Below, in pieces: positions 6,345 through 64,000 of a stretch of DNA of 64,000 nucleotides; position 1 is the stretch's first letter; each line of letters opens with the position of its first letter. Under the pieces are notes generated by a model that had not been told where the DNA came from, did no database searches, and saw nothing but the letters and a program-made list of their open reading frames with translations. Position numbers and translations under genes: made by a program. The stretch spans positions 142,862-206,861 of the forward strand of contig JBBQZW010000001.1 of assembly GCA_038207395.1 (NCBI GenBank), given 5' to 3'. Source of the DNA: Minisyncoccia bacterium (GTDB lineage: Bacteria > Patescibacteriota > Minisyncoccia > Phycocordibacterales > Phycocordibacteraceae).

Positions 6345-8359
<2,015 letters not shown>

Positions 8360-8660
8360 AGGAAATATCGTTTGAAATACCTAATAAAGAACCAATATGG
8401 GTTATGTATTGCCGTTTTACAAAAGGAACAACTTCCCTTCGTAAAAGTTATCCACAGTATATGAATCGTGCTGAAGACAGTCAAATTTTGGAATTGACAA
8501 CATCTACTATTCGTAGTAAATTCCTGACAGATAGCTGTTTATGCGATTTGAGAGCGAGTCACTCCCCTCCTCAGTATGTTCTGAGAACGTGAGCGACTCG
8601 CCCTTGAATAGGGCCGCAGATATTCGGGGGTGATCCCCAAAAACACCTGCGGCAAGGAGA

Positions 8661-9449
8661 TTGGCCATGAGCCAACCCAATACCGCATTTTTTCATCCGC
8701 ACAGACCCAGTGTTCGTCTCGGCATTCGTGTCGAAGAACTATTCGAGCCTGTGAGCCAAGAAATCCGTCAAGGAGTCTTGCTCGGCTCGGCTGAGGACAT
8801 TACCGCACACGAAGGTGGCAAAAAATATCCTGCTAAGCGACCCCGCAAGGGCGCGCAAGTTGTGTGGACTCACGATGGTGAGCCACTTCCAACAACTGAT
8901 CGTTCTCTGCTCACCCACGCAAGTATCGTGGATGTGAAGACGGAACGAGGTGGAATACGCCATCTACTTTCGATGCCTCGCGACGATGGAAAGCATTTGG
9001 TGTTCATTCAAACGGGCCTTGTCGGCACGATGGATGAACATTTACACCAAGTCCTTTCGAACGCCAGCCAAGGTATTCTCCCCCAACTTCACGGCTCAGT
9101 CGCCATAGACGATGGCTCGCGCTCCGTTTCTGCTTCGCAGGAAGGTGAGTTGCCGGTCAATGTCTGTCTTGCGCAGCCGCGCCGTTTACGGTGGTGGAGA
9201 CCTCGAAAATCGTTACCCGGTATCGTAAGCGACATTCGCGCCCGCCGCATGGATCTTTGGGAGCTTGCTCCCGGTGCCGAATTATTGGTTCAGGATATAT
9301 TCCCCGGCCATGCATTTCGCATCGTGATACGTGACGGAAAAGTTCAGACTGCTGACGCACCTCGCAATTCTGCTGAATTGCTTGAAGCAGCACTCACTCA
9401 GAGCGCGCGAAAGCCAGCGCCAGAGTTTGAACCGGCCGTTGTCGCCTAA
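8661..9449 (+). CDS. Hypothetical protein encoded in a visibly GC-richer patch.
   Basis: It is a 262-aa ORF with no recognisable domain. It is followed by a strong hairpin terminator, and its composition differs from the flanking DNA. Confidence 0.45.
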   Translation: MAMSQPNTAFFHPHRPSVRLGIRVEELFEPVSQEIRQGVLLGSAEDITAHEGGKKYPAKRPRKGAQVVWTHDGEPLPTTDRSLLTHASIVDVKTERGGIRHLLSMPRDDGKHLVFIQTGLVGTMDEHLHQVLSNASQGILPQLHGSVAIDDGSRSVSASQEGELPVNVCLAQPRRLRWWRPRKSLPGIVSDIRARRMDLWELAPGAELLVQDIFPGHAFRIVIRDGKVQTADAPRNSAELLEAALTQSARKPAPEFEPAVVA

Positions 9450-9468
9450 GCTACGATGAAAAAATGCA

Positions 9469-9500
9469 GCCCCCGAGGAATTTATTCCTCGGGGGCTTTT
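9469..9500 (+). terminator. Rho-independent terminator.
   Basis: GCCCCCGAGG-aatttatt-CCTCGGGGGC followed by TTTT. Confidence 0.7.
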
Positions 9501-9544
9501 GATTGTCTGGTACGTGAGAATGTGCTATATTCACCGGTATCTAT

Positions 9545-9775
9545 ATGACCGCCCTACTTCCCTACTTCGAGATCATCCTTTCGGTATTACTTATCCTAGG
9601 CATCGTACTTCAGCAGCGCGGAGCTTCACTTGGAGGTGCTTTTGGTGGTGACAACTTTGCCTCTACTTTCTATAAGCGTCGTGGCGCCGAGAAATTCCTC
9701 TTTATTTCAACAAGTATCGTTGCCTTTTTGTTTATTGTTGTTGCTATCGCTAGCTTTGTATTAACGGCAGCGTAA
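9545..9775 (+). CDS. secG: Preprotein translocase subunit SecG.
   Basis: It is 76 aa with two TM helices and the LLQQ..GASLGGAFGG glycine-rich SecG loop. Confidence 0.7.
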   Translation: MTALLPYFEIILSVLLILGIVLQQRGASLGGAFGGDNFASTFYKRRGAEKFLFISTSIVAFLFIVVAIASFVLTAA

Positions 9776-9789
9776 AAGCTCCCTTTCCT

Positions 9790-11463
9790 ATGGATCGAGC
9801 TTCCCGATTCATCGCATCGCTCCGTCCTTCCGATGCGGTTATTGCAGGAGTGCTTTTTAGTATCGCGTTGATTGCTTGCTTTGTTGGCGTATCTGCACTC
9901 GTGCGTTCATTTCAAATAACCATTCCTGCAAATGGAGGAACACTCACTGAAGGTATCGTTGGTAGTCCTCGGTATATCAATCCCCTTCTTGCTCTTTCAG
10001 ATAGTGACCGTGACCTAGTAGCTCTTACCTATTCTGGCCTCATGGGTCACACATCTAATGGCAGTCTTGTTCCCGTGCTTGCTGAGTCCTATACCCTTTC
10101 ACCTGACGGCACTATATATACGTTTATTCTACGAGAAACAGCTCAATTCTCTGATGGAACTCCCGTTACTGCAGATGACGTTGCCTACACGATTCAAAAA
10201 GCTCAAGATCCTGCATTAAAAAGTCCTGTTTTTGCAAACTGGTCGAATATACGAGTAGAAGCTATCGATTCACGAACGGTTCGTTTTACCCTACCAAAAG
10301 CGTATGCTCCGTTTTTAGAGGACACAACACTCGGTATATTACCTCAACACCTTTGGAAAAATTTGAGTAATGAAGAGTTTCCTTTTGCACCTCAGAATAC
10401 GATGCCTGTTGGCAGCGGACCGTTTGTTTCAAAATCGGTTACGCGAAATGCCCAAGGAGTCATAACAGGATACCTTTTGGATTCTTTCCCCCAGTATCCT
10501 TTAGGCAAACCGTACCTTTCCCATGTGCGCATACTGATATACGGAAATCAAACAGATCTTCAAACAGCGTATAAAAATGGGACGATTAAAAGTGCTTATG
10601 GCATTCCGGCGCCAAATGCGTTAAAAGCTCCGTATGCACGAGTGTTTGGGGTATTTTTTAATGACCGCACAAATCCAGCATTAAAAGATCTTGCCGTACG
10701 TAAAGCCCTTTCTTTAGCATTAGATCGTACAGCACTTACTCAGAACACTTTCGGAGGATATGCTTCAGCGCTAAACGGGCCACTACCTGCAGGAAGCAGC
10801 ATTCCAGCGATTCCAGTACCTTCTGACGAAACTCGCATGGATGAGGCTCGTGCCGCACTAACCTCTGCAGGGTACGTATACAGTCAAACCGCGCAGACCT
10901 GGAGTAAAAAAGGAGGAGAGCCGCTTTCAATTACTCTTACAACCTCAAATGTTCCTGAACTTAAAGTGGTCGCAAGTGCGGTACAGAAAGACTGGAGAGC
11001 ACTCGGAATACCGGTAGAACTTGAGCTCCATGATCCTTCTACCTTGGTTCAGAACATTATTCGTCCGCGCGCCTACGGCGCACTCCTATTCGGAGAGGTT
11101 ATTGGCTCCAGCCCTGACCTATACCCCTTTTGGGCAAGTAGTGAACGCACGAATCCAGGTCTTAACATTGCAAACTACGAAAACAAGGAAGTCGATACAC
11201 TTCTAACTAAGGCTCGTGCAGAGTCTAACCCAGAAGTGCGTAGTGATCTTCTGGGGAAGATCCAAGAAAAGATTGCCGCTGACTACCCTGCTGCATTTCT
11301 ATATACTCCTGACTTTTTATACAACGCACCTTCATCAGTTCGCGGCATAACTCTTTCACAAGTAAGTACGCCTTCTGATCGTTTCTGGGGTATCCAAAAT
11401 TGGTATATCTACACTGAGCACGTGTGGCCGATTTTTGTCCCCTCTCCACGCCCTGGCGCATAG
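9790..11463 (+). CDS. Extracellular solute-binding protein, family 5 (Opp/Dpp-type ABC substrate-binding protein), membrane anchored.
   Basis: 557 aa. It has an N-terminal TM/signal anchor and an overall SBP_bac_5-like sequence (e.g. ...TLTYSGLMG..., ...YLLDSFPQYP...). Confidence 0.7.
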   Translation: MDRASRFIASLRPSDAVIAGVLFSIALIACFVGVSALVRSFQITIPANGGTLTEGIVGSPRYINPLLALSDSDRDLVALTYSGLMGHTSNGSLVPVLAESYTLSPDGTIYTFILRETAQFSDGTPVTADDVAYTIQKAQDPALKSPVFANWSNIRVEAIDSRTVRFTLPKAYAPFLEDTTLGILPQHLWKNLSNEEFPFAPQNTMPVGSGPFVSKSVTRNAQGVITGYLLDSFPQYPLGKPYLSHVRILIYGNQTDLQTAYKNGTIKSAYGIPAPNALKAPYARVFGVFFNDRTNPALKDLAVRKALSLALDRTALTQNTFGGYASALNGPLPAGSSIPAIPVPSDETRMDEARAALTSAGYVYSQTAQTWSKKGGEPLSITLTTSNVPELKVVASAVQKDWRALGIPVELELHDPSTLVQNIIRPRAYGALLFGEVIGSSPDLYPFWASSERTNPGLNIANYENKEVDTLLTKARAESNPEVRSDLLGKIQEKIAADYPAAFLYTPDFLYNAPSSVRGITLSQVSTPSDRFWGIQNWYIYTEHVWPIFVPSPRPGA

Positions 11464-45895: not shown

Positions 45896-46576
45896 TTACT
45901 GAAGGAGTAGGAGAAGTATCCCTGCCAGGGCTGCCATCCCAAAATCCTCAATAAGAGTTACGTACGTTAGTGGGACTTTTAGGAATGTGCCGAGGCATGA
46001 GCAGATGAATTCTTCCTTCCGTGCAATCTTGATTGCAACTCCAATTCCGCTGAATACCATAACCATCAGTTCAATCCAGAGGAGGAAGGGTGTATGAATT
46101 CCCGCAACCATAAGTAGACCAAAGGTAAGTTCAACGAACGGATAGACATAGCCGTAGACGAACCACCGCTGTGCAAGCAAGTCATAGGTTGAGTACCCTT
46201 CTGCAAAACCTTTAAGATCAATCAGCTTAAAGCCTGCAAACACGAGAAAGAATCCAGCCATGAAGTATTCAAGCGAGCGTGAGAACATAAATACTCCCTT
46301 AGCCTGGTCTGCGAGTGATGCAGCGGTAGTTGCCGCTAGAAGCAGACTGAATATGACGATAAGTGGCATGTAGCTTTTCCAGGTGATCGGACCCAAACCT
46401 TTGTCACTACCGATTGCTTTTGGTTTCGCATTCACTGATTGTTCAGGCACGAGCGCCATACCACATTTTGGACATCGTCCTGGCAGCTCCTGCCGCACAT
46501 CGGTATGCATCGGACAGATATACATACTAGAGTAGACTATTGCGCTGTAGAACCTCCGTACCATTGCTTCTGCCAT
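45896..46576 (-). CDS. Fusion of a heavy-metal-binding domain (HMBD, YxCPMH...CPKCGM) to a MauE/DoxX-like membrane domain. The probable start is near 46525.
   Basis: MYICPMHTDVRQELPGRCPKCGMAL, then about 5 TM helices. Confidence 0.6.
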   Translation of the reverse strand: MAEAMVRRFYSAIVYSSMYICPMHTDVRQELPGRCPKCGMALVPEQSVNAKPKAIGSDKGLGPITWKSYMPLIVIFSLLLAATTAASLADQAKGVFMFSRSLEYFMAGFFLVFAGFKLIDLKGFAEGYSTYDLLAQRWFVYGYVYPFVELTFGLLMVAGIHTPFLLWIELMVMVFSGIGVAIKIARKEEFICSCLGTFLKVPLTYVTLIEDFGMAALAGILLLLLQ

Positions 46577-46947
46577 GATTGCATTTCAGCTATTTCTTTA
46601 TTTTGAGCAGTTATGATTGCCGTAGCAAGATCTTTTATTTCCTGATGCTTAGCGTTTGTAAGTGCAAGTTGTGCCATTTCTACAGCACCTTGGTGGTGAA
46701 CAGTCATTTCCGTAAGGAAGGCTTGATCAAAGGAATCACCTGTCTTTCCTTGGAGCGCAGCATTCATGGCACTCATCTCACCGTGCATACTCATACTTTC
46801 CCCTCCCATCATCTCTCCATTTGCCATTTGATGCTGCATCGCCCCTTTCTCAGATACACTATTTTTCTCGATGGACGCATATACGCCTCCACCCCCAACG
46901 ATTAGACCTACCAGTACTCCGACGATAACTTTTGAATTTGTATTCAT
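46537..46947 (-). CDS. DUF305 domain protein with a Met-rich N-terminal region (paralog B).
   Basis: MQHQMANGEMMGGESMSMHGEMSAM, then TVHHQGAVEMAQLALTNAKHQEIKDLATAIITAQNKEIAEMQSWQ. It parallels the paralog at 33295-33726. Confidence 0.7.
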   Translation of the reverse strand: MNTNSKVIVGVLVGLIVGGGGVYASIEKNSVSEKGAMQHQMANGEMMGGESMSMHGEMSAMNAALQGKTGDSFDQAFLTEMTVHHQGAVEMAQLALTNAKHQEIKDLATAIITAQNKEIAEMQSWQKQWYGGSTAQ

Positions 46948-46984
46948 GGTTGTTTATATAGATTAATAAGAAACAAAAAGATAT

Positions 46985-47395
46985 CTAATATAACTTGGGA
47001 TGAATAATACCGTTTGAAAATGCCTCTTGGAGACTATTGCGCGGAATAAATAGTGGTGGAGGTGAAAGAACCTGTTCCCAGGATGCAAAGAGAGTGTGGG
47101 GGTTCCAAATTCCTCGACAAACAAGCCATAGGCATGCACACGCAAAGACAAGCGCTGTGATAAGAGAGGAGAAATCTAACGGTATCGCAGAAAAAATACT
47201 ACTCCAGTACGAAAGGTGATCTAATGGTGTTTGACATCCTTCTGCTGAGTTAGAGGAGGGACAGGAGCTTCCCATTGCCATACTATGCTGAGAAGAACTC
47301 GAGATTCCAATGCATAGGAAAATACCTCCTATGAAGAATAAGATTAGTATCAGAGCCAGGCTTTTTGGAGTCACTCTCATATAAAAAGTATACAC
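46985..47395 (-). CDS. Hypothetical membrane protein.
   Basis: 136 aa with two or three TM helices, Cys-containing. Confidence 0.3.
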   Translation of the reverse strand: MYTFYMRVTPKSLALILILFFIGGIFLCIGISSSSQHSMAMGSSCPSSNSAEGCQTPLDHLSYWSSIFSAIPLDFSSLITALVFACACLWLVCRGIWNPHTLFASWEQVLSPPPLFIPRNSLQEAFSNGIIHPKLY

Positions 47396-51866: not shown

Positions 51867-52346
51867 CTATACTCCCTTCCGGGCAGCCTCAATAGCAGCA
51901 ACGTCAATCTTCTGCATAGTCATCATCGCCGCGAAAGCGCGCGCTCCTTCTTCACCACCTGCTGCAAGGGCATCAGTAAGTGCGCGTGGTGTAATCTGCC
52001 ATGATATTCCCCAACGATCCTTACACCATCCACAATCACTCTCTATCCCCCCATTGCCGACGATGGCATCCCAGTATCGATCCGTCTCCTCTTGATCTTC
52101 TGTTGTTATTTGGAAAGAAAACGCCTCGCTTTGTGGAAACATCGGACCTCCATTAAGTCCGATACACGGAATTCCACATACCGTAAATCCTACCGTCAGC
52201 ACATCTCCCTTCTTTCCACCCGGAAAATCACTTGGCGCATTGAAAACAGAACGTACTGCACTGTCAGGAAATGTAGCTGCATAAAAAGTAGCAGCGTCTA
52301 ATGCGTCTTTTTCAAACCAGAGACAAATAGTATTTTTAGCAATCAT
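51867..52346 (-). CDS. PhnB-like / 3-demethylubiquinone-9 3-methyltransferase-domain protein (VOC superfamily).
   Basis: ICLWFEKDALDAATFYAATFPDS...ISWQI pattern. Confidence 0.65.
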   Translation of the reverse strand: MIAKNTICLWFEKDALDAATFYAATFPDSAVRSVFNAPSDFPGGKKGDVLTVGFTVCGIPCIGLNGGPMFPQSEAFSFQITTEDQEETDRYWDAIVGNGGIESDCGWCKDRWGISWQITPRALTDALAAGGEEGARAFAAMMTMQKIDVAAIEAARKGV

Positions 52347-53528: not shown

Positions 53529-53596
53529 AACCGTCCGCCTGAAACCCCTCGCTGGTCTCTCGGCGAGGCGGTTTTTTATAAAGATGTTGGTTGGGG

Positions 53597-53623
53597 GTTT
53601 GGACAGTATTCGAACAAATCTAA
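53597..53623 (-). repeat. Cassette-boundary direct repeat, copy 1 (GTTTGGACAGTATTCGAACAAATCTAA).
   Basis: It is homologous to the copies at 54278, 54895 and 55667, and sits immediately downstream (minus sense) of a terminator hairpin. Confidence 0.7.
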
Positions 53624-54271: not shown

Positions 54272-54277
54272 TTGTTG

Positions 54278-54308
54278 ACCGTCTGGGACGATATTCGAAC
54301 AATTCTAA
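54278..54308 (-). repeat. Cassette-boundary direct repeat, copy 2 (ACCGTCTGGGACGATATTCGAACAATTCTAA).
   Basis: It matches copy 3 at 26 of 28 positions and is flanked by the palindrome GTCAATTGTTGAC. Confidence 0.75.
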
Positions 54309-54858: not shown

Positions 54859-54894
54859 AAGAACAATACAATCGTTTATTGAAAATGTCTAGCT

Positions 54895-54925
54895 GGCCGT
54901 CTAGGACGATATTCGAACACATCTC
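54895..54925 (-). repeat. Cassette-boundary direct repeat, copy 3 (GGCCGTCTAGGACGATATTCGAACACATCTC).
   Basis: See copy 2. It abuts the stop codon of the upstream GST-like gene. Confidence 0.75.
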
Positions 54926-55590: not shown

Positions 55591-55666
55591 ACGAAAAGTA
55601 TATGCTATCGATCAGTTTTTAATAAATCCTCAGGCTCTCAGGACGCACGAAACTAACTCCTAAGTT

Positions 55667-55690
55667 GCTGGCCGTCTCGAGTTCGAACCG
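55667..55690 (-). repeat. Cassette-boundary direct repeat, copy 4 (shortened; GCTGGCCGTCTCGAGTTCGAACCG).
   Basis: It shares GCTGGCCGTCT...TTCGAAC with copy 3 and lies between the RT terminator and the GST-like gene. Confidence 0.55.
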
Positions 55691-55770
55691 TATAGAACCA
55701 AGCCCGGGTTAGTCCGTTTGGTGAGCTGGAGCTAGTCGAGAACGACGCGTCTCGTGCACCTAAGAAAGTT

Positions 55771-55806
55771 ACAAAAGTGACACAGGAATGAGGTTTTGAG
55801 TGTCAC
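55771..55806 (-). terminator. Rho-independent terminator after the DGR reverse transcriptase.
   Basis: On the minus strand the hairpin GTGACAC-(16 nt)-GTGTCAC is followed by TTTTGT. Confidence 0.55.
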
Positions 55807-55821
55807 TTGAATAGTTACACA

Positions 55822-56874
55822 CTATTGTCCTCTTTCCAGAACCTCTTGCACTCGGCCTTTTAATTTCAAGGTATTTCCATGCCTCAATAAGCCCAGATAA
55901 GACTGGATTGTTTCACTCTTAACTCCATTCTCGTGTATAGATTTGAGCATGCGTTTCTTAGTCGTAGTACGCAGAGTCCTGTGGTAAGGAAAATGTACCC
56001 AACCAAGAAAATCTATTCCTGACGATACGGTCGCAATAGAAACCTTCAACGGATGGATGGTAAGTCGTAATCTCTCCATGAGGAATGCTTCAATAAGGGG
56101 AAGTTGCGTTTCAAGCGACGCTCTATCTGAAGAGAGGAGCACAAAATCGTCTGCATAGCGCATATAGTATTTAGCCCTTAACATATGCTTCGCGAAATGA
56201 TCGAACTCGTTCATATATACGTTCACGAGGAGTTGGCTCGTGAGATTCCCGAGCGGTAGTCCGACGCCCTTTCTTGTGGAAGAAAAGCTTTCGATAATTT
56301 GGGACAATAACCAACAGATATCCTCATCTGGAATATAGCTCTGAATAATCGAAGTAAGGATGCCGTGATCTATAGATGCGAAGAATTTTCGGATGTCACA
56401 TTTCAGCACCCACCCCGTCTTTGTATAGTTCTTGGAAACCTTACCAGAGAAACGATTGAATCGTTCGAGGGCTTTATGGACACCTTTATTATCTCGGCAT
56501 GAATAGGAGTCAGCGATAAACGTCCGATCGAAGAACGGATAGAGCTTCCGATACAACGCGTGATGCAGAAGTCGATCACGCACACTCGCCTTATGAATAT
56601 CGCGTGGCTTCGGATCAGATATCTTGAATGCCCAATACTCAGAGTGACGGTAGATCTTGCTAGCAAGGTCGTCTCGGAGTCTCAGAATGTTATCCATGAG
56701 ATTCTCCTCAAATTCCCGCACGTCGGTGCGACTCCGCTTCCCCGAAGCGAACTCACGCCATGCTTCGAGCAGGTTTTCTAGCGAAATGATATCGTGATAG
56801 GAACTACTTGATTGAATTTTATTAGGAACATGGAACGTACCCCCCCCCCGAGACTTTTGCCAGTTATTGAGCAT
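55822..56874 (-). CDS. Diversity-generating retroelement (DGR) reverse transcriptase.
   Basis: 350 aa. It has RT motifs including YADD (MRYADDFVLL) and the DGR-specific LPLGNLTSQLLVNVY motif, which replaces the QGxxxSP of retron and group II RTs. It lies 350 nt from a TR/VR pair with adenine-specific mismatches. Confidence 0.9.
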   Translation of the reverse strand: MLNNWQKSRGGGTFHVPNKIQSSSSYHDIISLENLLEAWREFASGKRSRTDVREFEENLMDNILRLRDDLASKIYRHSEYWAFKISDPKPRDIHKASVRDRLLHHALYRKLYPFFDRTFIADSYSCRDNKGVHKALERFNRFSGKVSKNYTKTGWVLKCDIRKFFASIDHGILTSIIQSYIPDEDICWLLSQIIESFSSTRKGVGLPLGNLTSQLLVNVYMNEFDHFAKHMLRAKYYMRYADDFVLLSSDRASLETQLPLIEAFLMERLRLTIHPLKVSIATVSSGIDFLGWVHFPYHRTLRTTTKKRMLKSIHENGVKSETIQSYLGLLRHGNTLKLKGRVQEVLERGQ

Positions 56875-57204
56875 GCTGTTTCAGTATATAAGCTCTGGTA
56901 TGAGTATCGAGACCATTTCCCAAAGAAATCTCGCTATACGCTGGGCGACCGGATAGACCTAGTTTTCATACAGCTCGTGGAATTGCTGTGGGCAGCAGGG
57001 TACCAGGCGAAAGATGAGAAGCTCCCCACCATAGCAGCCGCGATACGGAAATTAGACGGTCTTAAATTTTTGCTTCGTATTGCGTGGGAAATTCAGATTC
57101 TCGATAGCACGAAGTACGCCTCCCTGTCTGAACCTCTCTTTGAGATCGGGAAGATGCTTGGCGGTTGGCGAAAAGGCATAGAAACGAAAACTCCCACACG
57201 TTAA
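56812..57204 (+). CDS. avd: Accessory variability determinant (Avd)-like four-helix-bundle protein. It is divergent from the RT, its 5' end overlaps it, and the start is uncertain.
   Basis: It resembles the TIGR02436 four-helix-bundle / 23S rRNA IVS protein family (FPKKSRYTLGDRIDLVFIQLVELL ... LSEPLFEIGKMLGGW). It sits between the RT and the TR. Confidence 0.6.
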   Translation: MNFIRNMERTPPPRLLPVIEHAVSVYKLWYEYRDHFPKKSRYTLGDRIDLVFIQLVELLWAAGYQAKDEKLPTIAAAIRKLDGLKFLLRIAWEIQILDSTKYASLSEPLFEIGKMLGGWRKGIETKTPTR

Positions 57205-57227
57205 GTGCGGGAGAACCGTGGGAGTTT

Positions 57228-57340
57228 CGAGAGAACGCTCGATTACCGGCATTCCAGTTGTCATCGTCCAGCTTCCACGTGTTGACGTTCCACTTCCGAT
57301 CGTCGCCGTTCCAGTTGACGTTGACGACATAGCCTGCGAC
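57228..57340 (-). repeat. DGR template repeat (TR), 113 nt.
   Basis: It matches 57686-57798 at 99 of 113 positions. All 14 mismatches fall where the minus strand of this copy has A, so this copy is the adenine-bearing template. An in-frame translation reads AGYVVNVNWNGDDRKWNVNTWKLDDDNWNAGNRAFSRN, rich in AAC codons. Confidence 0.88.
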
Positions 57341-57634
57341 TCTCGTACCTAGCGCCATCTGTGCCACCATCCGTTGAGTACTCTCCGGACTGAATAGTAT
57401 TTGGGACGTCGAAGTCCTCCAGCGTTAGATACCAACTACCAAGATTTTTTATAAAATTCCGGGCGCATGCTTTCTCAAGCCGTAGCCGGAGAGATTCGAG
57501 CCCACGGAATTCCAGAGTCCCTATGCCTAAGCCAATAGCCGAGACATCACCAAGAACTCAATACCAGTATACAAAATAAAAATCCCTCGGATTTCAAAGA
57601 TACAAAGTATCAAAGAGATAAGAGAGATTTCGGT

Positions 57635-57664
57635 GGCGAGTCTGGCCGGATTGCCAGACTCGCC
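57635..57664 (-). other. GC-rich 12-bp stem hairpin 22 nt downstream of the VR (DGR target-recognition hairpin/cruciform candidate).
   Basis: GGCGAGTCTGGC-cggatt-GCCAGACTCGCC, a perfect inverted repeat. Confidence 0.65.
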
Positions 57665-57678
57665 CAAGATGTTCAGGT

Positions 57679-58209
57679 TCAGTTGCGAGAGAACGCTCGA
57701 CCACCGGCATCCCAGTTGACAACGCCCAGCTCCCACGTGTAGACGTCCCACCTCCGACCGCCGCCGTACCAGTTGACGTCGACGACATAGCCTGCGACGT
57801 AGAACAGGTTCGCATAGCCGTTGTTGAGGAGGTCGCCCGCCTCGCCATTGGGTTGCTTGCTGATCATCTGGTCGATGCGAGCGCACAGCTCGGACTCGTC
57901 GAAGATGTAGTCCTCGCCGAGGCCGGGCGTGATCTCGCGATCGTAGGCGTTTTTCGTCAGCTCGCGCGAGATGAGGGTCAACGAGTCGAGGCTTTCGACC
58001 GGCTTCGCCTTCGAGCGCACACGCGACACGAAGTCGTCGGAGACCCAGACACCCTTGCGGGTTTTGAGAGCCGACGGGTCGTAGGTCGCAATGGCGTCGA
58101 GCGAGACACTGTCGTTGATCAGCTTCAGCACAGCAGGCTTGGGAGCCTGCTGTGCTGAAGCTGATTCGGAAGCCCCGAGCGCAGAACGCTCTTGAGATGG
58201 GCTTCCCAC
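57679..58209 (-). CDS. DGR target (variable) protein with a C-terminal VR. The 5' boundary is uncertain: the GTG start has no obvious RBS and the ORF overlaps an upstream ORF.
   Basis: It is a 176-aa ORF whose last ~37 codons are the VR. The alternative-frame Arg-rich ORF 57527..58219 is rejected. Confidence 0.75.
   Translation of the reverse strand: MGSPSQERSALGASESASAQQAPKPAVLKLINDSVSLDAIATYDPSALKTRKGVWVSDDFVSRVRSKAKPVESLDSLTLISRELTKNAYDREITPGLGEDYIFDESELCARIDQMISKQPNGEAGDLLNNGYANLFYVAGYVVDVNWYGGGRRWDVYTWELGVVNWDAGGRAFSRN
57686..57798 (-). repeat. DGR variable repeat (VR), 113 nt, at the extreme C-terminus of the target gene.
   Basis: It is the variable partner of the TR. At the 14 TR-adenine positions it carries G (10 times) or T (4 times). 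It encodes ...AGYVVDVNWYGGGRRWDVYTWELGVVNWDAGGRAFSRN*. Confidence 0.88.
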
Positions 58210-58322
58210 GCCGCGCCATTTTCGCCGGTGAACCGGTTCATGACGTCGAGCGACAGGTTGACTTGGGGTTGGGACAGATTGACCGAAGCCCGCACGAGCG
58301 AGCCGAGCATGTCTTTGGACAT
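58125..58322 (-). CDS. Small ORF with a strong RBS (AAAGGAG-N7-ATG) that overlaps the 5' end of the target ORF. It may be the true N-terminus of a frameshifted target gene or a separate small gene.
   Basis: It reads MSKDMLGSLVRASVNLSQ.... An 85-nt out-of-frame overlap with the 176-aa ORF spans a 19-bp perfect palindrome. Confidence 0.35.
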   Translation of the reverse strand: MSKDMLGSLVRASVNLSQPQVNLSLDVMNRFTGENGAAWEAHLKSVLRSGLPNQLQHSRLPSLLC

Positions 58323-58547: not shown

Positions 58548-58949
58548 TTGAAATGGGCTTATAATTACGCTATGCCAAAGAAACGCGTCGTCATTCTCAC
58601 AGATTTAGCCCTTCACACTCGGGCTGGCCAGCCTACGGCGAGTTTTGCACGTGCTGAGGAGAAGGCTATAGCTGAAAACAAGCTTGGACGTGTGTATGGA
58701 AAGCTCGCTAAGCCAAAGCCCGAAGATATAGACGAGAAGACCCATACGATTAAATTCCGTATTGATCTCCCACCAGACCTAATGGAACAAGTGCAGAGGG
58801 GCGAAGTAGAACTTGCCATGCCCGAAGGAGGGCTGCCTATTTATGTTGGGAAAGATACTCAGGAATTCATGCAGAACATGAATCGCAAGGAGCGTCGACG
58901 CCAGCAATTCAAGAAACACGGCACGAAGACTTGGCGGCCAAAAAGGTAG
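58548..58949 (+). CDS. Hypothetical basic protein (phage-associated region). The probable start is near 58572.
   Basis: No domain call. It is the first plus-strand gene of the phage-like module. Confidence 0.35.
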   Translation: MKWAYNYAMPKKRVVILTDLALHTRAGQPTASFARAEEKAIAENKLGRVYGKLAKPKPEDIDEKTHTIKFRIDLPPDLMEQVQRGEVELAMPEGGLPIYVGKDTQEFMQNMNRKERRRQQFKKHGTKTWRPKR

Positions 58950-59102
58950 TGCTATACTGTAGGAACAATTGAATATACAAGTGGTGCCGTACGCATGTCC
59001 CGCCCACTTCGTTGAGAGAGCCTGAATTCGTCAGCATAGCTGATTAGTTGAGACTTCCCTGCGAAGTGGGCTTTCTCGTTATCTACCTAATAAGTAACGA
59101 GC

Positions 59103-60386
59103 ATGAATAAACTATCTTGGACAACAATCCAAAAACGCGTAAACGATCTGATTCCCCAGGAGATCAACCCTCGCAAGATCACCGACAAACAAATGTCGGA
59201 CCTGAAGCGAAGCCTTAAGAAGTTCAATCTGGTGGAAATCCCCGCCGTGGATTATGACGGCACGATATTAGCAGGACATCAGCGTATCAAGGCTCTCCAG
59301 CTTCTTGGTCGCGGAGATGAGATGATCGACATCCGAGTACCTAATCGCAAACTAACCGAGAAAGAGTCTAAGGAATACCTGATCGGCTCCAACAAACTTG
59401 GTGGAGATTGGGACTTCGACATTCTGAAATCATTTGAACTCGATACGCTCTCGTTCGCAGGATTCGACGACCTTGAGCTTTCTAAGTTCTGGGACACTGA
59501 TAACGAAACTAAGGAGGACGCGTTCGACGTTGAGAAGGAGTTGAAGAAGATCATAGAACCGAAGACAAAGCTCGGTGACATTATTCGTCTTGGTAATCAC
59601 AAGATTCTTTGTGGCGACTCGACTGACCCGAAGAATCTTGCACGGCTTCTAGGGAGCGAACGCGCCAGCATGATCTACTCAGATCCCGTCTACAACATCT
59701 CTATCGACTACGACGGAGGCATTGGCGGTAAGAAGGATTACGGAGGAAACGTAAACGACACGCGCACCTACGAGGAATACAAGACTTTCATCAAGGAAAG
59801 CCTCGCTGCCGCGCTCGCCGTAGCAGACCCCAACACCCATATCTTCTACTACTGTGATCAGGTCTATATTGGCTTGATACAGGAAATTTACCGATCGCTC
59901 GGCATCGCTAACAAGCGGGTGTGCCTGTGGCTCAAGAACTCACAGAACCCAGTGCCGAAGGTGTACTGCAACAAGGCATATGAACCAGCCGTATACGGCA
60001 CGCGTGGAAGACCATACCTCGCGGAAGCCGTAAGCAATCTCAACGAGGTTATGAACAAGGAGTTCGGTACGGGAAACGAGCTTGTGGCGCAGGTGGACGA
60101 CTTCCTCGAGATCTGGACGGCAAAGCGACTTGCCGCGAAGGACTACAAGCACGCGACCTCAAAGCCGATCACACTCCACGAGAAAGCCATAAAGCGATGT
60201 ACCAGACCAAACGAAATCATTCTCGATAGCTTCCTGGGTTCAGGCAGTACCCTGCTTGCCGGAGAACAGCTTGGACGACGCGTGTACGGATGTGAGCTTG
60301 AGCCACGCTTCTGCGACCTAATCGCGATTAGGTTCGAGGCACTTACTGGAACCAAGCCAGTCATCGAACACCATGAAAAAGAATAA
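59103..60386 (+). CDS. ParB-like nuclease domain fused to an N6/N4 DNA methyltransferase (phage-type).
   Basis: ParB N-domain (INPRKITDKQMSDLKRSLKKFNLVEIPAV), methyltransferase motif IV SDPVY and motif I ILDSFLGSGST. Confidence 0.8.
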   Translation: MNKLSWTTIQKRVNDLIPQEINPRKITDKQMSDLKRSLKKFNLVEIPAVDYDGTILAGHQRIKALQLLGRGDEMIDIRVPNRKLTEKESKEYLIGSNKLGGDWDFDILKSFELDTLSFAGFDDLELSKFWDTDNETKEDAFDVEKELKKIIEPKTKLGDIIRLGNHKILCGDSTDPKNLARLLGSERASMIYSDPVYNISIDYDGGIGGKKDYGGNVNDTRTYEEYKTFIKESLAAALAVADPNTHIFYYCDQVYIGLIQEIYRSLGIANKRVCLWLKNSQNPVPKVYCNKAYEPAVYGTRGRPYLAEAVSNLNEVMNKEFGTGNELVAQVDDFLEIWTAKRLAAKDYKHATSKPITLHEKAIKRCTRPNEIILDSFLGSGSTLLAGEQLGRRVYGCELEPRFCDLIAIRFEALTGTKPVIEHHEKE

Positions 60387-60849
60387 ATTCCAGAAGCAGT
60401 TCTTGGACGAACTGCGGAAAGTACCGATCGTTCAAGTTGCGTGCGAGAAGACCGGCTTGTCTCGCAACAGTATCTATCGCTGGCGTAACGAAGATGCAGA
60501 GTTCCGCAAAGCTATGGAGGAAGCAATCGCCGAGGGTGAGGAACTTGTAAATGATATGAGTGAGGGTCAGCTACTCACACTTATCAAAGAGAAGAACTGG
60601 TCAGCGATTAGCTTCTGGCTTCGTAAGCGCAATCCCAAGTTCAAGGATCGCCTAGAGGTGGAAGTTGCACCTAAGCAAGAAGAACTCACGGAGGAACAGG
60701 AAGAGACTGTGCGTGAAGCTCTTCGACTTGCCTCTATGGATCCAACTATTAACCCTGTAACAGAAATCGACCATGGAACAGAACCCATTACCGACGCACC
60801 TGATGGAAACGATGCTGAAGGATCGGAAGGTCCGAACAGCGATCACTAA
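60373..60849 (+). CDS. Putative terminase small subunit (HTH).
   Basis: HTH segment ACEKTGLSRNSIYRWR and an acidic C-terminus. It is immediately upstream of and overlaps the large terminase gene. Confidence 0.5.
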   Translation: MKKNKFQKQFLDELRKVPIVQVACEKTGLSRNSIYRWRNEDAEFRKAMEEAIAEGEELVNDMSEGQLLTLIKEKNWSAISFWLRKRNPKFKDRLEVEVAPKQEELTEEQEETVREALRLASMDPTINPVTEIDHGTEPITDAPDGNDAEGSEGPNSDH

Positions 60850-62245
60850 AGAGAGCCATTGGTACTTCTTCCATTTCTACTTCGCTCACTATGTGAAGTA
60901 CCCGACCGCTCCTTTTCAAAAGGAGTTTATGGGGCTTTCAGAGCGCGAAGACGTGAAGAATCTCGTTGTGGTGGCCTTTCGCGGATCGGCGAAATCGACC
61001 ATCTTCACCATGTCCTATCCGATCTGGGCCATCCTCGGAAAGCAGCAAAAGAAATTCATTGTCATCCTGTCGCAAACACAGGCGCAAGCGAAACAGCATA
61101 TGATGAACCTTAGGCGTGAGCTTGAGGGTAATCCACTTCTCAAGAACGACCTCGGACCATTCCAAGAGGAGCGCAATGAATGGGGTGCAACTTCCCTTGT
61201 GTTCGGAAGGCATGGTGCTCGTATTACCGCCGTCTCAACGGAGCAGAGTGTTCGCGGCCTGCGTCATAATCAGCACCGGCCTGATCTCATAATAGGAGAC
61301 GACCTTGAAGATATTGCTTCCACAAAGACACGAGAGGGGCGTAATAAGACCTACGAGTGGCTAACGGGTGAAGTGATTCCTGCCGGAGACCGAAACACGC
61401 GCCTTATCGTGATCGGAAACCTTCTGCATGAGGATTCTCTCATTATGCGTCTACGCGAGGATATTGAGGGTAAAAGGATCGATGGAATGTTCAAAGCGTA
61501 TCCCCTTCTCGAAGGTCAGAAGATCTTATGGCCTGGAAAGTATCCGACAATGGAGGATATCGAGGAAGAGCAACGGAAAGCGGCAAACGATTACGCATGG
61601 CAACGCGAGTATCTTCTCAACATTGTTCCTGCGGAAGATCAGGTTATTGATCCGGCATGGATCCATTACTACGACGAGATTCCACCGCGCGTGCGGGTTT
61701 ATAGCGATGAGACTTACATGACGAATCTTGAAGTACGCATTGGTGTTGATCTGGCTATCTCGAAGCGCGATACCGCAGACTACACCGCGATGGTGCCAGC
61801 CCTCCTATACGAAAGGAAGAAGGGCTACGACATATACATTCTTCCGAAAATCATCAATAAGCGACTCTCATTCCCCGAAACTGTTGAGACGTGCAAGGTG
61901 ATAAACCAGTCGTACAAAGAGATCAAGGAATGGAACGGACCGGTGTTCGTGATTGAGGACGTAGCGTATCAAAGCGCCCTTCCCCAGCAGCTGAAGGCTG
62001 AAGGGCTCAGACAAATACACACAGTAAAACCGGGCAATGTAGATAAGCGCGCACGACTTATGCTGACCGCTAACCTTATCAAGACAGGAGTCGTAAAGTT
62101 TCCACGGCAAGGAGCCGAGCAATTAATTCAGCAGATAGTCCATTTCGGTGTTGAGAAACATGACGACCTTGCGGATGCATTCTCAGCTCTCGTCTTGGAC
62201 GCGATTGCAGAGCCTCCAAGAACCTTCCGGATCTTTATGCTCTAG
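60773..62245 (+). CDS. Phage terminase large subunit.
   Basis: Walker A AFRGSAKST, Walker B LIIGDDLED, and a C-terminal nuclease-like domain. 490 aa. Confidence 0.85.
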   Translation: MEQNPLPTHLMETMLKDRKVRTAITKESHWYFFHFYFAHYVKYPTAPFQKEFMGLSEREDVKNLVVVAFRGSAKSTIFTMSYPIWAILGKQQKKFIVILSQTQAQAKQHMMNLRRELEGNPLLKNDLGPFQEERNEWGATSLVFGRHGARITAVSTEQSVRGLRHNQHRPDLIIGDDLEDIASTKTREGRNKTYEWLTGEVIPAGDRNTRLIVIGNLLHEDSLIMRLREDIEGKRIDGMFKAYPLLEGQKILWPGKYPTMEDIEEEQRKAANDYAWQREYLLNIVPAEDQVIDPAWIHYYDEIPPRVRVYSDETYMTNLEVRIGVDLAISKRDTADYTAMVPALLYERKKGYDIYILPKIINKRLSFPETVETCKVINQSYKEIKEWNGPVFVIEDVAYQSALPQQLKAEGLRQIHTVKPGNVDKRARLMLTANLIKTGVVKFPRQGAEQLIQQIVHFGVEKHDDLADAFSALVLDAIAEPPRTFRIFML

Positions 62246-62277
62246 AGCAATTATTAGCGAACAGTAAGGCGATATAA

Positions 62278-62793
62278 CTAGTTCGTCTGCTCAACCGTAA
62301 CCTGCCAATTAATTCCACTTATAACCTGAACGAAGTAACGGCCGGGCTTGAGACTACGATACGTCGTCTGACCCTTACCTGCTTCTGATCCCTCAGTCAT
62401 TATAGAGAGACCTGGGCCAGTATATCCACCGTCTTCTTTCTCAAGACTGATGGCGGTATAGCTTCCTACCGATGAGCCTGTAGTGGTAGCAGTAATACGA
62501 ACCTTGTCACTTGTAACATCGAACGATTCACTATTCTGATTCCCCTTTCCTTTAAGGGTGTTAACTTGTGTCCAAAGCTCTTCCTTTGGAGCGGCGTTAT
62601 TTGCAGTACTTCCACTCGTTGAGTCTTTCGAGCCACCGAGTGATCCGATAAGTATGAGAACAAGAATTGCGTACACTACGAACATTCTCTTCTTCAGGTA
62701 CCACTTCTTTTCTGGCTTCTGCCCGTTTACTTCTTGAGACATATATAAGTTGTTGGTTCGGTTTTCTTCTAATCTCCCGATGGCCAGATACAC
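62278..62793 (-). CDS. Hypothetical membrane-anchored protein. The probable start is near 62742.
   Basis: TM anchor, then a Ser/Thr/Gly-rich soluble domain. Confidence 0.35.
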   Translation of the reverse strand: MYLAIGRLEENRTNNLYMSQEVNGQKPEKKWYLKKRMFVVYAILVLILIGSLGGSKDSTSGSTANNAAPKEELWTQVNTLKGKGNQNSESFDVTSDKVRITATTTGSSVGSYTAISLEKEDGGYTGPGLSIMTEGSEAGKGQTTYRSLKPGRYFVQVISGINWQVTVEQTN

Positions 62794-63086
62794 AAAAATC
62801 CCGCCACCAGGAGGACCCTTGCGGGTATCCCTACCTAAGTTTCCCTAGGTAACCGAACCAACGACCCTGATGACGGGGTTTTTACGTTGGTTTGGGTTTT
62901 CGACCATATCCTTTGAAATCAAAGGGGTTAGGCCATTTCTATTCAATTGTCCGTAATATGGTTGCCCCTACTACCTCTTCATAAGATGGCAGTCCGGTTG
63001 TTCTGCTAAGCCCTCCACGACCATGCTACGAATCACTAGTTTTGCATAGACTATGCATCATCCCCTGGTCTGGCATCAATTAATAG

Positions 63087-63389
63087 GTGGAGGACAGGGA
63101 CGAAATAGTAGATAAAGCAGCCCATTACCGTTTTACGAAGGAAGCCGATAGTGCTTATCTGAATAGGATTTCCCTACTTCCAAATTCTAAGAAGGATCTG
63201 AAGAGAGCGATCTTGGAAAGAATTGAGGTCTTGGTTACCGCCTATAGCTCTCTTGCGAGCTACGTGCCAGACGAGCTGATTGATTGGCTCAATTCGCACC
63301 AAGGAAGCGATAAGAGCAAGAAGGTGTATTTAGGCGTACTTCGGGATATGGAAAAGCTTCGGGTAGAAGCTTTGAGCAAATTGAAATAA
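63087..63389 (+). CDS. Hypothetical protein.
   Basis: It is a 100-aa ORF directly upstream of the recombinase gene. Confidence 0.35.
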   Translation: MEDRDEIVDKAAHYRFTKEADSAYLNRISLLPNSKKDLKRAILERIEVLVTAYSSLASYVPDELIDWLNSHQGSDKSKKVYLGVLRDMEKLRVEALSKLK

Positions 63390-63404
63390 TCTTTATGAAA
63401 ACTT

Positions 63405-64000
63405 TAGAAACTTCTCAGATTGGGTTATCACCCACAATTATTGAAGAGAAAATCAAATACTGTCTGTACGCTCGTAAATCGACTGAATCAGATGAGAAAC
63501 AGGCTCTTTCGATTGAGTCTCAGATAAAGGAAATGCTTCAGATAGCTGAACGAGAAAACCTGGATATAGCAGATATTAGACGAGAGTCGCATTCAGCTAA
63601 AGATTCAGGACAACGCCCCGTCTATCAGGAACTATTGGAAGACATCCGGCGACAACGATTCAACGCCATTCTAACGTGGGCACCTGACCGATTAAGTAGA
63701 AATGCTGGAGACCTAGGAACACTCGTAGATCTCATGGATCAAAAGCTCCTCCTAGAGATTCGCACGTATGGACAACATTTTAGGAATTCCCCTAACGAAA
63801 AGTTTCTTCTAATGATTCTTTGCTCCCAAGCAAAACTTGAGAACGATAATAAGAGTATCAATGTTAAGAGGGGTCTAAAGACACGAGTAGAGATGGGACT
63901 TCTGCCCGGACGCGCGCCAACTGGTTATCTAAAGGAGCAGCGAATGGACAGGAAGTGCGAAAGTATCCTAGACCCTGACCGAGCCATGGTTATAAAGAAG
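63405..64000 (+). CDS. Serine recombinase (resolvase/large-serine-integrase N-terminal catalytic domain), 5' partial. It continues past the window end.
   Basis: Hand translation gives CLYARKSTESDEKQALSIESQIKEM (the catalytic Ser context) and ...RGLKTRVEMGLLPGRAPTGY. It is not in the ORF track because it is truncated. Confidence 0.75.

Follow-up and report, generated by a model that had tools for sequence, protein, structure and literature searches.

A putative tRNA-inserting, satellite-like element with its own terminase genes in Patescibacteria

Genes for packaging and integrating DNA, grouped together with no virion genes between them, raise the question of what kind of mobile element they serve. 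Such a group lies at positions 58548-64000 of a 64,000-nucleotide stretch from a Minisyncoccia bacterium (assembly GCA_038207395.1, contig JBBQZW010000001.1, positions 142,862 to 206,861), which we call the window, beside a diversity-generating retroelement (DGR). A sequence-only reading had recognised, opposite the strand of the DGR target gene, a fusion of a ParB-like domain and a DNA methyltransferase (ParB-MTase), a small and a large terminase subunit (TerS and TerL, the latter with Walker A and B motifs) and a truncated serine recombinase (REC). All four are present and backed by Pfam and PHROG matches. We consider it likely that they form the backbone of a compact integrative element that inserts at tRNA genes, is widespread in Patescibacteria (the Candidate Phyla Radiation, CPR; class Paceibacteria) and leads a helper-dependent, satellite-like life.

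In the arrangement that we propose, the unit begins with a conserved non-coding left end (CE1, the attL region) and continues through variable minus-strand cargo to a small gene, o133, and then to ParB-MTase, TerS and TerL. Optional cargo, a small membrane-protein gene led by a LOOT RNA, and REC follow, and the unit closes, as judged from its relatives, with a palindromic right-end site at the 3′ end of a tRNA gene. In many relatives, o133 has a LexA/CI-like or ImmR/ImmA-type regulator before it.

Backbone genes and their recurrence

We searched the 202 N-terminal amino acids of REC encoded in the window (63395-64000, + strand; the window ends inside the gene) against one genome per GTDB species, with confirmation by tblastn. 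The best 80 of more than 503 relatives, 73-95% identical and nearly all from Patescibacteria metagenome-assembled genomes (MAGs), were fetched with their surroundings, in which open reading frames (ORFs) were called by a simple longest-ORF rule. Eight IMG/VR relatives of TerL were added; scans for CE1 and the LOOT RNA covered 89 sources, and those for tRNA genes 87 loci. The order ParB-MTase, TerS, TerL, REC recurs across the 80 fetched loci, always with the backbone genes upstream of REC and in many loci with TerL directly abutting it; the eight IMG/VR relatives have the same compact layout. In locus L036, ParB-MTase (6749-8029), TerS (8019-8489) and TerL (8416-9885) are followed by REC from about 10 kb. 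Only REC, ParB-MTase, TerS, TerL, an S24 repressor and o133 form families present in more than 15 loci by ORF clustering, while the flanking genes differ between loci and several copies occur per genome.

The backbone genes of the window all lie on the + strand, and their identities are supported by profile matches of differing strength. The ParB-MTase gene (59103-60386), found by tblastn in 58 of the 80 loci, joins a ParB-like nuclease domain (phrog_620, 5.9e-24, residues 8-144) to a beta-class N6-adenine/N4-cytosine DNA methyltransferase (PF01555 N6_N4_Mtase, 1.2e-29, residues 189-407; phrog_498, 7.5e-81), with DpnA and CcrM as relatives in the PDB. The TerS candidate (60373-60849) overlaps both of its neighbours and encodes an N-terminal helix-turn-helix and an acidic C-terminal tail. 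It matches phrog_4044 (4.3e-12) and other TerS PHROGs only within the helix-turn-helix (residues 7-55), and it falls under the Pfam cutoff for Sf6_terminase (6.7e-4). TerL (60773-62245) has an ATPase and an RNaseH-like nuclease domain and matches phrog_38 (4.1e-81), the T7-type terminase N-terminus of NCBIfam (termin_lrg_T7, 2e-14), psiM2_ORF9 and Terminase_6C (1e-4). In 31 family members, the Walker A residue K74, the Walker B residues D176/D177/E179 and the nuclease residues D326 and D464/D465/D468 are all invariant, and the family profile matches the solved terminases 8dgc_E and 4bij of the PDB. TerL was found in 38-39 of the 80 loci by tblastn, and TerS in 58.

REC matches the integrase family phrog_95 (3.8e-32). 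Among the solved structures of the PDB, it is related to the SPbeta and TP901-1 integrases. Of the curated families, CcrB comes closest (7e-36), with 123.9 bits against the NCBIfam cutoff of 900. Full-length relatives have about 439 amino acids and combine Resolvase, Recombinase and Zn_ribbon_recom domains (the full architecture is seen in the L036 homologue), and at this length the REC gene would be expected to end near 64.7 kb. In total, 673 REC-related proteins fell under 1e-60, and REC is present in two or more copies in several contigs or MAGs. The top-scoring homologues are truncated proteins, many on short contigs, which suggests that a multi-copy REC gene often breaks metagenome assemblies.

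The interval between TerL and REC in the window holds a membrane-protein ORF, a LOOT RNA and a 100-aa ORF, and no portal, capsid or tail gene, as the sequence-only reading had also stated. The same is seen beyond the window: no conserved portal or capsid gene was found in the 80 and eight related loci, and there was no portal or capsid PHROG among the top 25 families of either batch when 234 representative ORFs of 250-700 amino acids were scanned in two batches. That scan returned a single 'tail protein' family, with two members. In contrast, on a real phage contig with a phrog_38 TerL (L099), the genes that come next are those for the portal and for head morphogenesis. In relatives with 10 kb of sequence downstream of REC, copper-resistance genes, apparent restriction-modification genes (read by eye) or host genes are followed by a tRNA gene.

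Copies of TerL, ParB-MTase and REC differ by 0.1-0.5 nonsynonymous substitutions per site (dN) while synonymous change (dS) is saturated in the pairwise comparisons, so that the result can be read only qualitatively; the element's genes appear to be under purifying selection. The elements come in three forms, 38 with TerL, 19 with ParB-MTase and TerS only and 12 with no packaging genes, and these forms are intermixed among nearest-neighbour recombinases.

Upstream of ParB-MTase, o133 (58548-58949, + strand) is the first backbone gene and encodes a small conserved protein of 133 aa; a version of 125 aa, with its start at 58572, exactly matches a recorded protein. In 17-19 loci, a homologue stands before ParB-MTase. 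Searches of Pfam, PHROG, NCBIfam and PDB returned no match to o133; a profile search of the PDB brought up colicin E7 DNase at an E-value of only about 0.4, which we rejected, and the AlphaFold model (pLDDT 49) was not usable. Many relatives carry either a LexA/CI-like S24 repressor (Peptidase_S24, 9.5e-22; TIGR00498, 4.7e-25) or a pair of an XRE-type HTH_3 protein and an ImmA/IrrE-like Peptidase_M78 protein; these regulators sit divergent from o133 or just upstream of it. Between o133 and ParB-MTase, an intergenic region (58950-59102, + strand) is kept at the equal position in six other loci (L007, L013, L026, L038, L041 and L056; nhmmer) and may serve the backbone operon as promoter or operator. 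This region holds a weak internal inverted repeat. A scan of the window for promoters and terminators gave nothing above chance.

The orphan LOOT RNA (Rfam RF03000) is a hallmark of the element family. In the window, it lies on the minus strand at 62808-62940, between the membrane-protein gene and the recombinase operon, where cmscan matched the full-length model at 62813-62934 (76.5 bits against a gathering score of 46.4 bits; E 2.7e-13). With a covariance model that we built, LOOT was found in 53 of the 89 sources and always adjoined REC, upstream on the opposite strand in 39 and just downstream on REC's strand in 14. In most mapped loci it stands directly upstream of a small, variable gene, mostly for a membrane protein, like a 5′ leader. 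The corresponding gene in the window (62278-62793, minus strand) is transcribed behind LOOT, with a weak terminator-like hairpin (62812-62799) after the RNA. It encodes a membrane-anchored protein of 171 aa, an accessory 'moron' with weak matches to superinfection-exclusion PHROGs (3e-4); relatives have different small membrane or PH-domain proteins at this position. The 100-aa ORF (63087-63389, + strand) immediately upstream of REC is kept at the matching position in L002 (83%), L003 (79%) and L024 (49%).

Element ends and the tRNA target

The left end, CE1 (55665-55830, + strand), was traced with nhmmer and hidden Markov model (HMM) searches, and 37 copies were aligned. It starts with TTGCTGG (55665-55671), a fragment that resembles the 3′ end of tRNA-Gln, and continues with an A box (CCGTCTCGAGTTCGAACC, 55672-55689), a B box (CGACGCGTCTCGTGC, 55743-55757), which occurs once in the window, and GTTACA/GTGACA repeats (55768-55782) that are followed by inverted GTGTCAC/GTTACA copies to about 55825. 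CE1 was found in about 48 of the 89 loci, in one orientation, upstream of the backbone and 3-9 kb upstream of REC. Because it has no Rfam match and RNAalifold gave no consensus fold, we rejected it as a structured RNA and treated it as a DNA site.

At the other end, ARAGORN found a minus-strand tRNA gene to the right of REC in 46 of the 87 loci, with its 3′ end facing REC at a distance of 0.1-9 kb and, in L028, L082 and L085, of only 116-170 nt. These tRNAs are mostly Gln, Ser and Trp, with few Glu and Asp. Of the 35 cases inspected, about 31 have a palindromic site, ...CGACGCGTCTCGTGC-TA-GCACGAGT (left arm also given as GTCTCGTGC), just before the tRNA end. CE1 contains this left arm in two places, the A box and the B box. 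The opening bases of CE1 track the type of the right-end tRNA, being GCTG in nine of 10 Gln loci (GTTG in L057) and GCGG in all eight Ser/Trp loci. Finally, L039 and L047 are an empty and an occupied version of one site: their flanks are identical up to GCGG, after which L039 continues into an intact tRNA-Ser, and L047 into CE1 and a second element. The crossover position is bounded by this one pair of loci.

Because the start of CE1 tracks the tRNA type, the right-end site lies at the tRNA and the L039/L047 pair has these flanks, the element appears to insert at the extreme 3′ end of tRNA genes, to leave a short tRNA fragment on its left and to be able to stack in tandem. The window's own CE1 starts with TTGCTGG, and the predicted target of this copy is therefore a tRNA-Gln gene just beyond 64 kb. 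A search of the window did not find the right-end site within it. Repeats shared by CE1 and the 450 nt that follow REC were not above shuffled controls; in the relatives, the right end is located further downstream than this, at the tRNA.

Directly left of CE1, three loci (L003, 2-1084; L046, 2125-3810; L049, 2-520) carry a large serine recombinase of a second, longer type. Its reading frame enters the first bases of CE1, and in L035 a recombinase of this type reads through a tRNA gene. These tRNA sites may therefore also be used by elements that belong to a different family.

Copies of the CE1 repeats (AAAGTGACAAAAGTGACA, 55768-55825 in the window) are also present outside coding sequence in some phage-like IMG/VR contigs, namely L095, L098, L099 (1-74), L102 (5445-5620), L106 and L108. 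They adjoin a primase gene both in L099, which carries primase, TerL, portal and head genes, and in L102, which carries RecT, primase/helicase, RusA, TerS and TerL. GTGACA repeats may thus be a shared replication/origin or regulatory site. As a link to a helper phage, the repeat was set aside and kept as a lead only, most of its 19 IMG/VR matches being coding or low-complexity tandem repeats.

Left of CE1, three att-like sites of one repeat family, D2 (TTGCTGGCCGTnTnGGAnGATnTTCGAAC; 53591-53621, 54272-54300 and 54890-54918, + strand), were located by Hamming scans; each follows closely on the 3′ end of a small minus-strand gene. The 11-mer GCTGGCCGTCT is common to these sites and CE1, and their sequence recalls the 3′ half of tRNA-Gln; shuffled patterns of the site gave zero or one match in 1.48 Mb. 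L079 has a like arrangement, with three identical site copies left of CE1 (5042, 5564 and 6968). These sites are probably relics of earlier insertions, or else belong to recombinase-less cassettes at the same tRNA site, and lie outside the current element. Since they separate the cassettes at 53.5-55.6 kb from one another, the accessory block is composite, and the active-looking unit starts at 55.66 kb. The accessory block that the sequence-only reading had drawn from 51.4 kb onward is thus shortened on its left, where the cassettes look like leftovers of earlier insertions. The cassettes carry single genes (a glutathione S-transferase and unassigned ORFs), and a VOC-family gene lies further left (51867-52346). 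The array was also considered as an integron and rejected, with no tyrosine recombinase (IntI) nearby and no attC cores (RYYYAAC/GTTRRRY).

The DGR and other cargo

The DGR block (55822-58209, minus strand) lies between CE1 and o133 and is genuine and canonical, with a reverse transcriptase (RT), an Avd protein and an adenine-specific pair of template and variable repeats (TR and VR). The RT gene (55822-56874, minus strand; RVT_1, 2.4e-21) is followed by avd (56812-57204, + strand; bAvd, 7.7e-15), the 118-nt TR (57223-57340) and the target gene (57679-58209, minus strand), which contains the VR (57681-57798). TR and VR are 87% identical, and all 15 of their differences fall at TR adenines.

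In relatives, variable and mostly minus-strand genes fill the interval between CE1 and the backbone, which is one of three cargo slots, the others being between TerL and REC and between REC and the tRNA. Because the window's DGR sits in this slot, we take it to be borne by the element, in line with the earlier suggestion that a phage or mobile element may carry it. From 56 to 62 kb, a span that takes in the DGR target and the backbone genes, the GC content is 0.50-0.53; on either side it is 0.44-0.46, a shift that fits a foreign origin.

DGRs are also cargo in eight other loci (L014, L018, L019, L027, L034, L035, L082 and L084). We then considered the 80 closest metagenomic relatives of the RT (57-78% identical to it, with 36 of the loci being 8 kb or longer): ParB-MTase, TerS, TerL and CE1 were nearby in none of the 80, and a related recombinase in only five. 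We therefore rejected a general link between DGRs and the module and regard carriage of DGRs on the element as occasional. This result fits the published classification, in which DGRs are abundant in Patescibacteria and their clade is mostly cell-encoded rather than virus-encoded (Roux et al. 2021, PMC8144416).

Some details of the DGR stand apart from its carriage. In this DGR clade of Patescibacteria, avd does not share a strand with the RT gene but runs divergently from it and overlaps its start; the two are on opposite strands in L014, L018 and L019 as well as in the window. Among the 80 metagenomic RT loci (L109-L188), 65 have an avd match, which is divergent in the four with a position listed. 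The 5′ part of the target ORF contains a perfect 22-nt inverted repeat (58118-58165), and a 65-aa ORF in another frame lies just upstream (58125-58322); a frameshift may hide a longer target gene, or the hairpin at 58118-58165 may be regulatory.

Other relatives carry other cargo. L036 has a CBASS-type cyclase (CBASS, cyclic oligonucleotide-based antiphage signalling system) and a copper-resistance cluster, and a type III restriction-modification cluster and a candidate TIR-like pair were seen among the relatives, both labels being read by eye rather than by HMM. Copper sets, consisting of a Cu-ATPase, a multicopper oxidase, a cupredoxin and a CsoR-like repressor, are frequent between REC and the tRNA (L036, 11304-17020; L060, L002, L025 and L039). 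Two small genes of the window (46537-47395) cluster with proteins found among the copper-resistance sets of other loci.

Lifestyle and comparison with known systems

How might such an element move without virion genes of its own? REC would insert the element at the 3′ end of a tRNA gene and excise it again, the excision being triggered by infection with a helper phage or, in members with an S24 repressor, possibly by an SOS signal. The element's own TerS and TerL would then pack the excised DNA into capsids that the helper provides, in the manner of satellites of the phage-inducible chromosomal island (PICI) type, and the cargo (DGRs, CBASS, restriction-modification and copper resistance) would spread with it. 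A helper-dependent, satellite-like lifestyle seems to us the most likely one, with the packaging step inferred from the gene content. It fits the observation that TerS-only and packaging-free forms are intermixed with the complete ones, which resembles the cargo-only and PICI-like forms of tycheposons, and it fits the regulators of the relatives, which are typical of SOS-inducible mobile elements. The GTGACA repeats beside the primase genes of L099 and L102 provide a further hint in the same direction. Of the three options in the sequence-only reading, a satellite-like element is the one that we favour.

Several observations weigh against this reading. Only the left end of the window's copy is visible, its right end lying past 64 kb, and this copy has no recognisable repressor. 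Large serine recombinases seldom target tRNA genes, and CE1 is far more complex than the attP of about 50 bp used by the large serine integrases that have been studied, so that parts of CE1 may instead serve replication, packaging or regulation. TerS is identified through its helix-turn-helix match only; the best GenBank phage match of TerL is 27% identical, and we found no close relative of TerL in a capsid-encoding phage. Neither the window's element nor the conserved upstream ORFs (c26, c81, c83 and o133) gave a match to a primase, helicase or Rep family, no terminal direct repeats were present in 21 whole contigs, and our searches found no helper phage, excised circle, concatemer or particle-associated copy.

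The main rival likens the element to a staphylococcal cassette chromosome (SCC): a cargo island mobilised by a Ccr-like recombinase alone and transferred by generalised transduction or natural competence. ParB-MTase, TerS and TerL would then have another role, such as interference with phage packaging, processing of replicated DNA or protection by methylation. In its favour are CcrB as the closest curated family of REC, the tandem arrays with repeated att-like sites and recombinase-less cassettes, the metal-resistance and apparent restriction-modification cargo, the 12 elements without packaging genes and the 19 without TerL, and the lack of a helper phage among our finds. The score of REC is, however, far under the CcrB cutoff, and DNA packaging is the best explanation for an intact, strongly conserved TerL ATPase-nuclease that stands beside TerS in the canonical order. 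As for a role in defence, TerS, TerL, REC and o133 matched no PADLOC model and the methyltransferase domain matched generic methyltransferase models only; membership of the module in a known defence system was rejected on this PADLOC result. We regard an SCC-type island as unlikely, though it deserves serious consideration.

Appreciably less probable is packaging in place from a pac site, by lateral transduction or in the manner of a gene-transfer agent, which would mobilise the neighbouring chromosome together with the cargo. It would be compatible with the absence of recognised replication genes and with the stretches of cargo, some reaching about 9 kb, that separate REC from the tRNA, and the repeat-rich CE1 could act as the pac site. 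Capsids would still be needed from elsewhere, however, and the defined ends, the empty and occupied pair and the many genomic contexts point to discrete, site-specific movement.

The sequence-only reading had also offered a remnant, which we take to mean a temperate phage that has decayed to its packaging and integration genes, themselves without a function. Typical phage genes without structural genes, in a copy without a repressor, are what a defective prophage would leave behind. Yet the identical layout, free of structural genes, recurs in dozens of genomes from different Patescibacteria lineages, with saturated dS at a dN of 0.1-0.5, invariant catalytic residues in TerL, and conserved non-coding ends and LOOT RNA. 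These observations largely refute the remnant, to which we give very little credence. The recurrence of the capsid-free layout, the selection on its genes and the invariant TerL residues lead us to the same view of a prophage reaching past the window: that the window shows the left part of a complete prophage, with portal, capsid, tail and lysis genes beyond 64 kb, is conceivable in that the window ends inside the REC gene and leaves the right flank outside, but it is the least credible of the explanations, as relatives with 10 kb past REC show cargo or host genes and then a tRNA, REC comes within 116-170 nt of the tRNA in L028, L082 and L085, no portal or capsid family was seen in relatives, and L099, a real phage with this TerL family, has its portal directly after TerL. 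The earlier proposal that the element extends beyond the window thus holds for the rest of the REC gene and the right att site, and fails for virion genes.

Returning to the satellite-like reading, we put forward its fullest form only tentatively. The elements may be the first phage-satellite-like family described in Patescibacteria: tRNA islands driven by a large serine recombinase, encoding their own TerS, TerL and ParB-MTase but no capsid, packaging themselves into the capsids of unknown CPR phages, shuttling DGR, CBASS, restriction-modification and copper cargo, and bearing LOOT as a hallmark. Full-text literature searches found no description of the element, and a 2025 survey of horizontal transfer in Patescibacteria speaks of genomic islands and prophages in general terms, without a single mention of terminase, integrase or recombinase. 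Gene exchange among Patescibacteria, whose genomes are tiny, is poorly understood; the element would be a concrete vehicle for DGRs, defence systems and metal-resistance genes among them, and it gives the orphan LOOT RNA a genomic context. The predicted attP, attB, attL and attR are directly testable sequences, and the several hundred related large serine recombinases with different tRNA targets may serve as integration tools.

Set beside known systems, the element shares with prophages an integrase and att sites at its ends, attR being seen in relatives only. Virion genes contiguous with the terminase are a prophage trait that the element and its relatives lack. It is like SCC in that the best curated match of REC is CcrB, in its insertion at the 3′ end of a conserved host gene, in its composite tandem arrays with short repeated sites and recombinase-less units, and in its metal-resistance and apparent restriction-modification cargo. 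SCC, however, targets the 3′ end of rlmH, whereas the relatives abut tRNA-Gln, Ser, Trp, Glu or Asp, and REC reaches about 124 bits where the CcrB cutoff is 900. SCC elements carry helicase/primase-like genes and, to our knowledge, no terminase genes. The PICI-like element (PLE) of Vibrio cholerae has a repeat, not a tRNA gene, as its insertion site, and we know of no TerS-TerL pair encoded by it. PLE is a phage satellite that uses a large serine recombinase as its integrase (PMC6002521). Its likeness to the element lies in this recombinase class, and the hosts are unrelated.

Closer parallels are found in the PICIs, including the Staphylococcus aureus pathogenicity islands (SaPIs). Like them, the element is small and integrated, has its integrase at one end, and in many members encodes a candidate phage-type repressor. 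It also has its own TerS, which sets packaging specificity, carries accessory and defence cargo, and lacks tail and lysis genes; its TerS-only members recall the SaPIs. Unlike PICIs, it uses a large serine recombinase, has no recognised primase/replicase or origin, carries ParB-MTase and the LOOT RNA, resides in Patescibacteria and depends on a helper phage only by prediction. With capsid-forming PICIs it shares TerS and TerL, but their capsid, portal, protease and connector genes are absent from the element.

The tycheposons of Prochlorococcus combine cargo-only and PICI-like forms (with terS) in one family, a minority of them use large serine recombinases, and no PICI-like tycheposon with additional cargo has been reported (10.1101/2020.12.28.424599). 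Compared with this published description, the element resembles them in having both forms in one family, in site-specific insertion next to tRNA genes, in partial tRNA copies and in islands built as tandem arrays. It differs in that packaging genes and cargo coexist, in the presence of TerL and ParB-MTase, in having no replication module that we found, and in its host phylum. On these analogies, the element would work most like PICIs and tycheposons, from which it is set apart by four differences: the class of its recombinase, a full terminase without capsid genes, the pairing of ParB-MTase with the LOOT RNA, and the phylum of its hosts.

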